Below are positions 20,479 through 33,457 of a stretch of DNA of 64,000 nucleotides, piece after piece (positions within the stretch are counted from its first letter, which is position 1; every line of letters starts with the position of its first letter). A model generated the notes under the pieces. It ran no database searches, had not been told where the DNA came from, and saw only the letters and a list, made by a program, of their open reading frames with translations. The stretch comes from Schmidtea polychroa (Eukaryota). Where the stretch lies: positions 29,824,001 through 29,888,000 of the forward strand of contig CM097885.1 in the NCBI GenBank assembly GCA_044892525.1. Direction: 5' to 3'. A program made the position numbers and the translations under genes.

Positions 20479-20580
20479 AGTAGTAGGATGTGGGCTCCCC
20501 CGGCCAGGAGCTCCCCCGGCCACATATACCCCCTCCCCCCCCCCCCCGGGAAAAAATTTTTTTTTTAATTTTTTGTTTTA

Positions 20581-21130
20581 ATTAATTGGCCGGGCGGGCT
20601 CACACTTTTTTTCATCCCAAAAATTAATGTTCCTGCCAACAGATTTTATTGACCGATACCTCATCTTAAAGCTCAGTCCAAGACCTTTCGAATGAGCTAT
20701 AGGTATCATATATATCTTTAATAGTTTTAATGTTATTAACAATTGATGACCACCATCTTTTCAACGTTAAATTATTATTATTTTCCAAAATATTATTAAT
20801 TGGCCGGGCGGGCTCACACTTTTTTTCATCCCAAAAATTAATGTTCCTGCCAACAGATTTTATTGACCTATACCTCATCTTAAAGCTCAGTCCAAGACCT
20901 TTCGAAAGAGCTATAGGTATCATATATATCTTTAATAGTTTTAATGTTATTAACAATTGATGACCACCATCTTTTCAACGTTAAATTATTATTATTTTCC
21001 AAAATATTATTAATTGGCCGGGCGGGCTCCTACTTTTTTTCATCCCAAAGATAAATGTTCCCGCCAACATATTATATTGATCGATAGCTTATTTTAAAGC
21101 TCAGTCCAAGACCTTTCTAATGAGATATAG
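20581..21130. repeat. 214-bp subterminal tandem repeat, ~2.5 copies (also at ~51444-51993)
   Basis: TGGCCGGGCGGGCTC at 20587, 20801 and 21015. Confidence 0.92.
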
Positions 21131-21143
21131 ATTTTTATCATAC

Positions 21144-21580
21144 GATGACTCATCACATTTTTAGAACAAAGACAATGACTCATCACATTTTTAGAATGAT
21201 GTCTAATATTTTAGAATGATGCCTAATATTTTTAGAATGATTACGTCACATTTTTAGAATGATGCCTCTTATTTTTAGAATGATTACGTCATATTTTTAG
21301 AATGATGCCTAATATTTTTAGAACGATTACGTCATACTTTTAGAACGATGCCAAATATTTTTAGAATGATTACGTCATACTTTTAGAACGATGCCTAATA
21401 TTTTTAGAACGATGCCTAATATTTTTAGAACGATGTCTATTATTTTTAGAATGATTAGTCATACTTTTAGAACGATGTCTATTATTTTTAGAATGATTAC
21501 GTCATACTTTTAGAACGATGCCTAATATTTTTAGAATGATTACATCATAATTTTAGAACGATGCCTAATATTTTTAGAAT
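21144..21580. repeat. ~20-23-bp minisatellite (TTTTAGAAYGAT...); the copy at 52007-52380 is 63 bp shorter
   Basis: About 20 units of ttttagaatgattacgtcatac / ttttagaacgatgcctaatat. Confidence 0.9.
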
Positions 21581-21722
21581 TAATAATTTTGTTTTAATTA
21601 TCGATGATTATATAATTTTGTTTAAATCATTGATTATATAATTTTTTTTTGTTTTAATTATCGAATACGTAATAATATAATTTTGTTTAAATCGTTGATT
21701 ACATATTATTATTTTCTAAGTT

Positions 21723-22815
21723 TTATTATTATTATTATTATTATTATTATTATTATTATTATTATTATCATATATACACCGAGTCTATCCGACAAGATAT
21801 TCTGTCCCCCTATGGGTACTGCTCACAAATGTACTACTCACATTCAACAAGTCACAAATGTACTACTCACACTCAACAAGTCACATGGGTACTGTTCACA
21901 AAGCTACTGGTAAAAATATTCAAGACAAAACTTTCTAAATTCTAAATATTATTCTTTAAATATACACTAAAATTTATTAACACATTCAAATTCATCATCT
22001 CCACAGTTCATAACATTTTCAAATACAATTTCAAAGTATTATTATTATTATTATTATTATTATTATTACGCGCGCAGGGAATATTATTATCATATATACT
22101 CTTAATCCATCCGACAAAATATTCTATCCCTTTATGGGTATTGCTCATATGGGTAATGGTCAAAGGTGTACTACTCACATTCAACATGTCTCAAAGGGTA
22201 TAATATAATTATTATTAAATTCTGACCAACTTAAATCAATGAAGGGGTAGAACAAAAATATATTAAGTTGCGGTATTTTAAATTTAAAAATATTTTAAAA
22301 ACTTATTTTGACACTAAAGTTTACTTAATTAACAAAGACATAATTATTGCACATGCTTTGCATAAATATTATTATTTTTTAAATTTTCAATATTTTCTTT
22401 TAAAGTATTAACACGCGCGGGAGTTATTATTATTATTATTATTATTATTATTATTATTATTATTATTATTATTATTATTATTATTATTATTATTATTATT
22501 ATTATTGTTAACGAAAAATCTAAAATATGGTTTACACACACAACCCCTCAACCATTATTATTATTATCAATATTAATAACCTAAAATATTTTCTACACAC
22601 ACACACACATGCACAACTCATTAACCATTATTATTATCAGTATTAGTGAAATTCTAAAATATTTTCTACACACATATACAACCCATTAAACTTTTATTAT
22701 TATTATTAATATTATTATTATTATTATTATTATTATTATTATTATTATTATTATTATTATTATTATTATTATTATTATTATTATTATTATTATTATTATT
22801 ATTATTATTATTATT
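21723..22815. repeat. Cluster of (ATT)n microsatellites and short ACACACAACCC-ATT repeats
   Basis: Runs at ~21723, 22038, 22423 and 22694. Several differ in length in the next unit. Confidence 0.9.
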
Positions 22816-23297
22816 GTTGCAAATATTAGTTAAAAAGATAAATTATTTCTACACACATACACAACCCATTAACCATTATTATTATCATTATTAGTGAAAA
22901 CCTCAAATATTTTTTACACACACACACAACCCATTAACAATTATTATTATCACTATTAGTGAAAACCTAAAATATTTTTACACACTAAGTTATGGGGTAG
23001 AGAATTATTATATGTTTGCAGTATTCTGTGTTTGCCTTTACAGGAAGTTGTCAATATGGAGCGATAATTTTATACATACATTCTATATACACATACCTTG
23101 TTTAACATGGGTGTATATACTCCTAGTCTATCCGACAAGATATTCTGTCCCCCTATGGGTAATGCTCACAAGGGTACTACTCACATTCAACATATCGCAA
23201 GGGTATATTAATTAAGGTTAGTAAATAAAACCTATCACACACACTATTTAAACGATAAAAATCAAGACAAGAGAGGACAAGGCAAAGTGTATGCATT

Positions 23298-31275: not shown

Positions 31276-31914
31276 TCAACTTTGTTTTGAACTTTGTTTA
31301 TATACCATGGCACCTTTTGGGTTGAAAATATCTGTTTTTACCCGTATATCATCAGGGCATTGTTGTGTGAAATCGAGAAATATATACCCATGCGGTATTT
31401 TCGTGGCATCTTGAAATGCACTGATAAGAAAATTACGGTTATTAGGGTATGCTTGTCGTCCAAGAAAATCAATGACAGTTGCATCTCTAGGATTCTTGAA
31501 AATAACTAAATATTGTACATTTAAATTACGTGTTCGATGTGCACCACCTTGATGAAATAGATTTTGTGTTATGAAAATAACTGTTACACCAACATGTCTG
31601 CTGATTTTTGTGAATAAATTATTAAAGTCCTTTTCTTTATTGGCTTCTTGATACAAATCATCGATAATGATGACATCATCTTTCTTCAAACGACTTGACC
31701 AGTTTTTATCAAAGCCCTTTACTATTTTCATGTTTTTCAACTGACAGAAACTTGATTGCGTCAATCCGTGTTCTTCGTCGGCGCCCCTATGCCAATAAAT
31801 ATTGTTGAATTTTGTTTTAAACAAATTTGATTTTAGTAATTTACAAACAAATAAAGTTTTCCCGCTACCACTTGGACCAACGATTTGGTATACTGCATCA
31901 TTTCGTAATTCCAT
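31276..31914 (-). CDS. Polinton genome-packaging ATPase (A32/FtsK-HerA family)
   Basis: Walker A GPSGSGKT, Walker B IIIDDL, SRH, ITQNLF, FKNPRD and PHGYIFLD motifs. Confidence 0.93.
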   Translation of the reverse strand: MELRNDAVYQIVGPSGSGKTLFVCKLLKSNLFKTKFNNIYWHRGADEEHGLTQSSFCQLKNMKIVKGFDKNWSSRLKKDDVIIIDDLYQEANKEKDFNNLFTKISRHVGVTVIFITQNLFHQGGAHRTRNLNVQYLVIFKNPRDATVIDFLGRQAYPNNRNFLISAFQDATKIPHGYIFLDFTQQCPDDIRVKTDIFNPKGAMVYKQSSKQS

Positions 31915-32018
31915 TTTTTAAATTTAAACTATATAATTATTGTTTATATTGATAATTTAAATGAACTCTGTTTTTAAATACCTATATATATCAAAGTTTT
32001 TAAAATTATTTCATTAAA

Positions 32019-32483
32019 ATGCTTTCAAATATAAATTACAGGGCAAAAACTGATGTATCAAAAATGGTATTTCCAATAGGGAAACCACAACAACTTATCA
32101 ATAGAAGTAATAAATATCCAATAATATATTTCAAAACTGGTAAATGTAGAATTATGGGGTGTAAGGAAATAATCAAAGCTAGTGAATATAATGTTTATGA
32201 TTTAGAAATACAATCGATAACCGTAACTTCCGATATAGGTTTTTCTTGTAATTTAAATAAATTAGCTAAATTAATACCATGCTTTTATGAACCAGAATTA
32301 TTTCCAGCTTTGAGATATATAAAATATAACCCTATGTGTGTAAATATATTCGCTAGTGGTAAGATAGTAATTCTTGGAATAAAAAATATTGATTACAAAT
32401 GTATAGTTGATAATATCATATCTGAAATTAAATCAATAATTGAAGGAAAAGAATTTTTAGATTTTTTATTATCACTTAATTAA
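32019..32483 (+). CDS. TATA-binding-protein-like protein (minimal TBP fold)
   Basis: IIYFKTGKCRIMG (repeat 1); LNKLA...YEPELFPALRY...VNIFASGKIVILG (repeat 2). Confidence 0.85.
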   Translation: MLSNINYRAKTDVSKMVFPIGKPQQLINRSNKYPIIYFKTGKCRIMGCKEIIKASEYNVYDLEIQSITVTSDIGFSCNLNKLAKLIPCFYEPELFPALRYIKYNPMCVNIFASGKIVILGIKNIDYKCIVDNIISEIKSIIEGKEFLDFLLSLN

Positions 32484-32591
32484 TTATTTATCATTCAATT
32501 AAAACAAAAACATACTGCAATCTGATTGGATGATAAACAATAGTCATAGGTATAAAAACCCTGTACCATTTCATTTTAATCATAATTCACA

Positions 32592-33011
32592 ATGACCAAG
32601 AAAATTTCAAGCACTGAAAAACCAAAAGTAGTTCCAGAACTTGTACAACCTGTTCAAATGTTCCACAACTACAAAATGTATTTTTTAAAAGAAGAAATCA
32701 ATATGAAATTGGTGTCACCGATCAAGCTAATTCCTACCCAATTTCAATTCTTAACCGGCACGCTTTCAATGTTAGATATTAAAACCATAGATGATGTTTT
32801 CAAAAGGTTGAATACGAATCTATCATGCAATCAATATGCATTTTTCAACAACCGATATGCAAAATTTTATGATTCCTTTGATGAAATCAGTTTCAAAGAA
32901 AACGAAAATTGGTATATAACAATTACAATCCAAGGATATAAAGTTGATAATAATGATGTGTATTCTCCAATTTGGAAAATTATGTCTGCTAGACTTTCAC
33001 AGTTATTTTAA
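32592..33011 (+). CDS. Hypothetical Polinton protein, possibly an OB-fold ssDNA-binding protein
   Basis: Clean 139-aa ORF; TATAAAA at 32550; AATAAA downstream. C-terminal beta pattern ITIQGY...PIWKI. Confidence 0.6.
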   Translation: MTKKISSTEKPKVVPELVQPVQMFHNYKMYFLKEEINMKLVSPIKLIPTQFQFLTGTLSMLDIKTIDDVFKRLNTNLSCNQYAFFNNRYAKFYDSFDEISFKENENWYITITIQGYKVDNNDVYSPIWKIMSARLSQLF

Positions 33012-33107
33012 TGTTGTATTTAATAAATGTATTTAGTCATATTTGTTTTCGCTTATATTCTATATTTTCTATAAACAAATATATACTATAGTTTTAAAAT
33101 ACTAATA

Positions 33108-33457
33108 ATGACTACAGAAAAAGGTTAATATGATTAGTTAATTATCGAATTATTTAATATTTAGAATTTATAATAAACTTTTTATTGGAAAAGTTAGCAG
33201 AAATATCTGGTGTGAAAATTGAGGACATATTATCTGTTACAAACGCATTAAATATCGGCTGGGTAGCAGAGAGTGAAGATTCGGAATTTGATGAAACAGA
33301 TGAAGAAAACACTCAAGATGATGAGGAAAGCATTCAAGAAATTGATGAACCTATGGAGGAATTTACGGATACTGAACCGTGTGTATATAGGGATTGTATA
33401 GATCATGTTGTTGAAAATGTTATGAACTGTGGAGATGATGAATGTGAATGTGGATAA
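33108..33457 (+). CDS. Acidic hypothetical protein, spliced (41-nt intron at 33124-33164)
   Basis: ATG ACT ACA GAA AAA G|gt...ag|AA TTT joins in frame to ORF 33185-33457 (MTTEKEFIINFLLEKLAE...). Confidence 0.65.

Follow-up and report, generated by a model that had tools for sequence, protein, structure and literature searches.

How did an element of the Polinton/Maverick type come to be without its own polymerase? Polintons replicate from their ends by protein priming and integrate with an rve integrase. In a 64,000-nt stretch of Schmidtea polychroa DNA (GCA_044892525.1, contig CM097885.1, positions 29,824,001 to 29,888,000; hereafter the window, whose numbering is used throughout), positions 20479-33452 hold such an element, in which the inner boundaries of both terminal inverted repeats (TIRs) can be seen. 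The original prediction, made from the letters alone, saw no protein-primed polymerase (pPolB) and no helicase in it, and left two explanations side by side: a lineage without a replicase, or an internal deletion derivative. We found that the copy very likely descends from a pPolB-bearing lineage, judging from its relatives, and with somewhat better than even confidence we read it as a defective derivative that lost pPolB secondarily and would need a helper for copying. The derivative explanation thus fared better, although not as a plain deletion, since the 4.65-kb polymerase slot appears to have been replaced.

The absence of pPolB was examined with a profile built from 60 related (clade) polymerases. 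Among held-out pieces it recovered 305 of 315 that were 40 aa long and, at 10 bits or more, 395 of 495 that were 25 aa long. Its best score in 22022-26670 was -3.7 bits, against -6.3 to +3.5 bits in 10 shuffles, and no positive score was obtained anywhere in the window. Because the profile finds such short pieces, a recent pPolB remnant would be detected even if it were broken up by frameshifts or into tiny exons. The tBLASTn comparison that had been proposed as a check, carried out with the pPolBs of three relatives, likewise gave no match with E < 0.27 anywhere in the window. The motif words first used to judge the absence (DxxSLYP, YxDTDS) differ from those of the polymerase in this clade; the profile search was negative all the same. 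No helicase or polymerase Pfam family was matched in 64 stop-free pieces or in 18 frames with stops read as X, in agreement with the earlier statement on helicases. Nor was a substitute replicase found: no ORF (open reading frame) in the slot exceeds 108 codons, the length of the longest stop-free frame between the microsatellite blocks (22851-26480), and no large unassigned ORF lies elsewhere in the element. The single slot frame searched of six, with stops read as X, had no homolog among 1.84 billion proteins, and all three minus frames of 25100-26450 carry 39-47 stops per 450 codons. These searches support the view that pPolB is absent from the copy.

We compared the locus with 49 related metagenomic loci, in 23 of which the protease was matched. 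Each of the 5 related loci that extend 2.4 kb or more beyond the protease carries a pPolB convergent on it, as do 6 of the 8 that extend 1.5 kb or more, and in no related locus examined was pPolB seen on the TBP side. The gene order SSB-like/TBP, ATPase, integrase, penton, capsid, protease, pPolB (SSB, single-strand DNA-binding protein) is the same in L002 and L020. Three relatives with capsids 54-57% identical (L002, L004 and L020) share the order from the ATPase (L002, L020) or the penton (L004) to the protease, and L002 and L020 also have TBP and SSB-like genes, as does the window element. All three have a pPolB of 1148-1304 codons convergent on the protease, at a place where the window element is non-coding. 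When the enzyme of one relative served as query, many of the pPolB homologs obtained were annotated as PF03175 and/or endonuclease VII. A quick tree was built from 80 capsids, with matches from P0060 onward included only in part; in it the window capsid falls in a 19-row clade (SH-aLRT 100) whose sister clades hold loci with pPolB in cis. Within the clade, two members lie on contigs exactly as long as pPolB contigs, an indirect linkage. Similarly, 9 of 17 capsid-bearing contigs longer than 10 kb equal a pPolB-bearing contig in length, which is again indirect, and short lengths coincide by chance. As relatives carry pPolB in the slot and the capsid nests among pPolB-bearing relatives, loss of the polymerase is probably derived and not an old trait of the lineage.

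The slot is close in length to the space taken by pPolB and its neighbors in relatives. Its content, 4.65 kb of non-coding and unrelated DNA, is for that reason to be read as a replacement rather than a plain or clean deletion. A run of AAT of about 150 nt lies between the protease and the slot. A motif of about 90 nt is present in four same-strand copies per element, with 8 matches in the window including duplicates (0.02 expected) and none elsewhere in the window; three of the four copies were compared and are identical at 72-79 of 87 positions (83-91%). Hairpins are predicted for the motif, with modest folding energies calculated without shuffle controls. It belongs to no Rfam family and had no match in a scan of viral contigs.

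We then turned to the element ends. The left end opens with AGTAGTAGG at 20479. The inverted match between 33411-33452 and 22022-21981, as first described, was reproduced (42 nt, 41/42, 97.6%, E 2e-13); it is the sole strong minus-strand match of 20479-33700 in the window besides its duplicate-copy counterpart, and the same 42 nt form the final codons of the acidic ORF. The arms of this copy measure 1544 nt on the left and 42 nt on the right. The original prediction had a right TIR starting at 33411, a left TIR of about 1.5 kb and an element of about 14.5 kb, and suggested looking for copies that continue from 33452 into the reverse complement of 21980. Contigs from four public runs (X1, X5, X7, X8; four studies) were aligned to 26660-34600. 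Among the ends listed, loose contig ends fall exactly at 33452 in two of the four runs (41 contigs in X1, 4 in X7), with none at that position among those listed for X5 and X8. The loose letters of X1 match the reverse complement starting at 21980 exactly for 15 positions, and the remainder of the 30 agree save for one change and short gaps, while those of X7 agree with the left arm for about 9 letters and then diverge. X1 may come from the same source as the window. Other copies thus appear to run on from 33452 into left-TIR-like sequence over the approximately 30 visible letters. This fits a 1.54-kb TIR and an element of about 14.5 kb (predicted intact length 14,476 nt with 1544-nt arms), so that the proposed geometry is borne out over that short distance. 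The claim that the right TIR was cut by the retroelement did not stand. The remainder of the right TIR is absent throughout the window, though a full duplicated unit is present, and for this reason the right end would have been lost by deletion, with a fragment of a retroelement joined on in its place, rather than merely interrupted by an insertion.

The window contains a tandem segmental duplication with a 30.9-kb unit (6347-33153 = 37249-64000 at 99.1%). Its three copies of the element represent one insertion and not three, because they are separated by so few substitutions (see table). The slot is present in two of them, distinguished by private substitutions. Deletion joins lie at 768/769, 6345/6346 and 33452/33453; the last junction occurs once in the window, with no bridging contig among those listed. 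The putative penton gene is frameshifted in all three duplicates, whereas relatives have one ORF of about 340-380 aa. With this frameshift and a missing right end, the copy looks dead and now immobile. The full morphogenesis module described earlier therefore holds for the protease and ATPase, which have Pfam matches, and for the open capsid gene, and fails at the putative penton, which is split into two ORFs. As for the element's family, 76,093 contigs were aligned in X1, and in all four runs the summed depth over the element greatly exceeded the depth over the adjoining retroelement, a measure that is not a copy number. The aligned contigs span >99% to <90% identity, and the window copy differs at many sites from most of them.

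We propose the following course of events. An ancestor would have integrated into a retroelement fragment. Its polymerase region would have been exchanged for non-coding, repeat-rich DNA of the arm type. Recombination or template switching, either at the microsatellites or at the ~90-nt motif shared with the TIR, is the most likely route. Later transposition, if any, would have relied on a helper polymerase recognizing the ends. A deletion may then have taken the right TIR and the target duplication, after which the remains may have been multiplied passively by segmental duplication. The need for a helper is drawn from established Polinton biology: pPolB also bears a terminal protein domain (PMC11161782), and a copy without pPolB and terminal protein could not copy itself unless a helper had compatible ends.

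A secondarily defective derivative is better supported than a replicase-less lineage because the capsid nests among pPolB-bearing relatives and the copy is otherwise damaged. Several observations weigh against it. After a simple recent deletion one would expect a shorter element with pPolB edges left behind, but the slot spans 4.65 kb with no edge or trace of pPolB. The motif copies are only 72-79/87 identical, which implies a slot layout of some age that could be older than the spread of the family. Most of the remaining genes are open. pPolB was seen in no copy of the element's family; the closest capsids (98%, a cluster of 11) lie on contigs shorter than 2.7 kb. An alternative is that pPolB is missing from the entire high-copy family, which would then be a satellite-like polintovirus. 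It would provide capsid, integrase, a TBP-like factor and a putative SSB, take polymerase and terminal protein from Polintons resident in the same genome, and use stuffer DNA to stay at a packageable length of about 14.5 kb. We regard this as unlikely, yet deserving of serious attention, mainly because the slot was apparently replaced, at near-normal length, and not cleanly deleted. The motif copies that the slot shares with the TIR, spread through it in one orientation, would suit such an arrangement, as would the open capsid, ATPase, integrase and TBP genes and a family that looks very abundant by contig number and depth. On the other hand, only one independent insertion was observed, all long relatives carry pPolB, and the wide range of identities among the aligned contigs means that divergence of the motif need not predate the family.

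The structure of the left 6 kb can also be explained as a chimera, in which the polymerase end was overwritten, either by an arm from a gene-less palindromic derivative or by an inverted copy of the element's right end. In that case the family's true TIR may be shorter, or intact copies may have their pPolB on the far side of the acidic gene. The inner edge of the TIR does fall inside coding sequence, as it would had one end been copied over the other, the AAT run divides protease from slot, and the loose ends cover few letters, with X7 soon leaving the left arm. We consider this improbable, as X1 tracks the left arm over 30 letters and no related locus examined has pPolB on the TBP side. A replicase hidden by many tiny introns, or an assembly artefact, is more doubtful still and in our view very improbable. 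It could appeal to the putative 33-42-nt introns of the element's genes, and to a 33452/33453 junction that is seen once and bridged by no listed contig. The negative slot scores of a profile that detects most 25-aa pieces, the density of stops, the X-read frame without a match and the slot's occurrence in two copies with private substitutions all speak against it. The defective derivative is the reading that we favor.

Compared with known systems, the element shares with Polinton/Maverick elements (adintoviruses) that have a PF03175-type pPolB ('Alpha', or group 2) a long left TIR, an rve integrase, an A32-type ATPase, an adenovirus-type protease and a jelly-roll capsid look-alike. The equation of Alpha with OTU plus pfam03175 and with group 2 is taken from PMC8502044. 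Unlike an autonomous Polinton/Maverick, the copy is without pPolB, its right end is missing, its putative penton is frameshifted, and it has a TBP-like gene and putative short introns. It is not an autonomous Polinton, because the defining pPolB was searched for and not found; it works like a non-autonomous one. The original description of Polintons in 2006 reportedly included non-autonomous members already. In non-autonomous DNA transposons, as a general pattern outlined in PMC3014272 and PMC6431247, ends are kept, an essential enzyme is lost and filler DNA is gained. The copy resembles them in keeping an end and having filler DNA in place of an essential enzyme, and differs from typical derivatives in that it retains the entire cassette for virion and integration at close to full length, with no shrinkage. 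Integrase, ATPase and capsid genes without a canonical pPolB are also found in Tlr1 of Tetrahymena and in polinton-like viruses (PLVs) (PMC4028283, PMC11161782). In Tlr1 and most PLVs another replicase stands in for pPolB (a helicase-palm fusion, PolA, or AEP with S3H); since no substitute helicase-polymerase was found in the window copy, it is not Tlr1-like, and unlike these elements it nests within a pPolB-bearing clade. Many protist endogenous elements are described as having no detectable DNA polymerase (PMC10120064). A literature search, with most subscription papers and supplements outside its scope, found no animal Polinton family described as having a capsid but no replicase.

The features of the element and its surroundings are listed below.

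Table. Positions of the element, its genes and repeats, its duplicates and the adjoining retroelement fragments in the window.
Feature	Position	Strand	Basis or remark
Left TIR	20479..22022	.	1544 nt; inner edge carries inverted copy of acidic gene 3' end
~214-nt repeats in left TIR	20581-21130		
Short tandem repeats in left TIR	about 21140-21580		
Inner 42 nt of left TIR	21981..22022	-	Inverse of 33411-33452
Surviving right-TIR stub	33411..33452	+	Inverted match and loose contig ends
Slot holding pPolB in relatives	22023..26670	.	4648 nt, 25% GC, ATT/AAT microsatellites, without recognisable protein homology
~90-nt motif, copy 1	21771..21857	+	Within TIR
~90-nt motif, copy 2	22093..22200	+	
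~90-nt motif, copy 3	23114..23200	+	
~90-nt motif, copy 4	24980..25065	+	
Adenovirus-type maturation protease	26671..27054	-	Pfam PF00770, E 1.2e-6
Major capsid protein, 407 aa, open	27083..28306	-	Homologs and capsid look-alikes
Conserved 120-aa gene upstream of capsid gene	28303..28665	-	Conserved in relatives
Putative penton, frameshift-split into two overlapping ORFs	28658..29711	-	Assigned by position
rve integrase with chromodomain	29657..30712	-	Pfam matches
75-aa ORF overlapping integrase start, other frame	30543..30770	-	Conserved in L001, L016, L017, L020
Conserved basic 162-aa gene	30774..31262	-	
A32-type packaging ATPase	31276..31914	-	Pfam PF04665, E 2e-7
TBP-like gene, head to head with ATPase	32019..32483	+	Pfam PF00352, E 2.8e-15
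Putative OB-fold single-strand DNA-binding protein, 139 aa	32592..33011	+	Weak fold match
Acidic gene, end cut at 33452	33108..33457	+	ORF
Duplicate of element copy in next 30.9-kb unit	51346..64000	.	12 substitutions in 12.7 kb
Third, doubly truncated duplicate	768..6345	.	= 26013-31587; 5 substitutions in 5.6 kb
Retroelement fragment hosting Polinton left end	19786..20478	+	79% like 34696-35385
Rearranged Ulp1-protease and reverse-transcriptase retroelement fragments joined to stub	33453..39240	+	Outside Polinton

Among the genes, the integrase and TBP-like genes proposed at the outset were both recovered. The integrase matches Pfam rve at E 1.1e-6 with 29.3 bits, below the gathering score of 32.6, and its chromodomain is likewise below gathering; the protein is 46-66% identical to the integrases of relatives. 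The capsid protein has no Pfam match. It has 172 homologs, the nearest 98% identical, and its look-alikes include a double jelly-roll cluster (score 0.98 to the PF21738 cluster, with a recognition value below the tool's threshold). A viral-contig scan with the capsid gave no match, and a scan of prokaryote genomes gave only 2 weak, uninformative loci. The conserved 120-aa gene may encode a core protein. The 139-aa gene, kept in two relatives, had been called SSB-like and may encode such a protein: its predicted structure (pLDDT 65) has a weak best match to T7 gp2.5 (Z 4.8, rmsd 3.6, 101 aligned), and Foldseek returned no significant match with the same model. Three putative GT..AG introns were noted, in the protease (27017-27049, 33 nt, 5 nt past the start and just after the start codon), the integrase (30283-30324, 42 nt) and the acidic gene (33124-33164, 41 nt); that of the integrase is in-frame and is not found at that site in L001, the relative inspected. 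The word TATAAA[C/A] occurs 34-56 nt upstream of 6 of the 11 gene starts checked (genes 28306-33108), and none precedes TBP.

Some further observations concern the relatives. L018, L019 and L020 have two tandem penton-like genes each. In L004 an ORF upstream of pPolB (6748-7431, minus strand) resembles by eye the Cys/His-rich N-terminus of the same pPolB, and accessory genes of relatives (L020:225-722 and L016:919-1260) encode a ubiquitin-conjugating enzyme and a dual-specificity phosphatase.

Several candidates within the slot were set aside. Decayed (leucine-rich-like) genes at 25100-26450 and 23650-24300 are unsupported, with no Pfam match and no homolog for the single frame searched of six; a codon-usage score applied to them was unable to separate control genes from noise. 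A match to metazoan SRP-RNA at 23513-23611 (minus strand), the most GC-rich part of the slot, was not accepted (29.6 bits against a gathering score of 70, E 4e-4). The 72% inverted match between 31913-32033 and 24380-24498 was dismissed as AT-rich, the shuffle control being dominated by ATT runs and non-decisive.

Around the element, AT-rich repeats of 2.16 kb form an array within the 30.9-kb unit. Large-subunit rRNA of eukaryotic type, which marks the host as a eukaryote, is present as fragments (18042-18686 on the minus strand, 37445-37490 and 39280-39310, the latter two recognized by eye). They are antisense to and fused with the Ulp1-protease and reverse-transcriptase retroelement, and an ORF at 18553-18795 begins within rRNA sequence. 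The arrangement may resemble that of rDNA-targeting elements of the NeSL/R5 type.

As one dead copy, the element represents an ordinary but clear step in the decay of Polintons, in which the polymerase slot appears to have been replaced and not merely deleted. Were the whole family without pPolB, Polinton ends would be replicable in trans while the virion module stays under selection. Such a family would trade virions and transcription help for the polymerase of a helper, standing between autonomous Polintons and gene-less palindromes, and Polinton replication and particle spread would become testable by copy counts in one genome.

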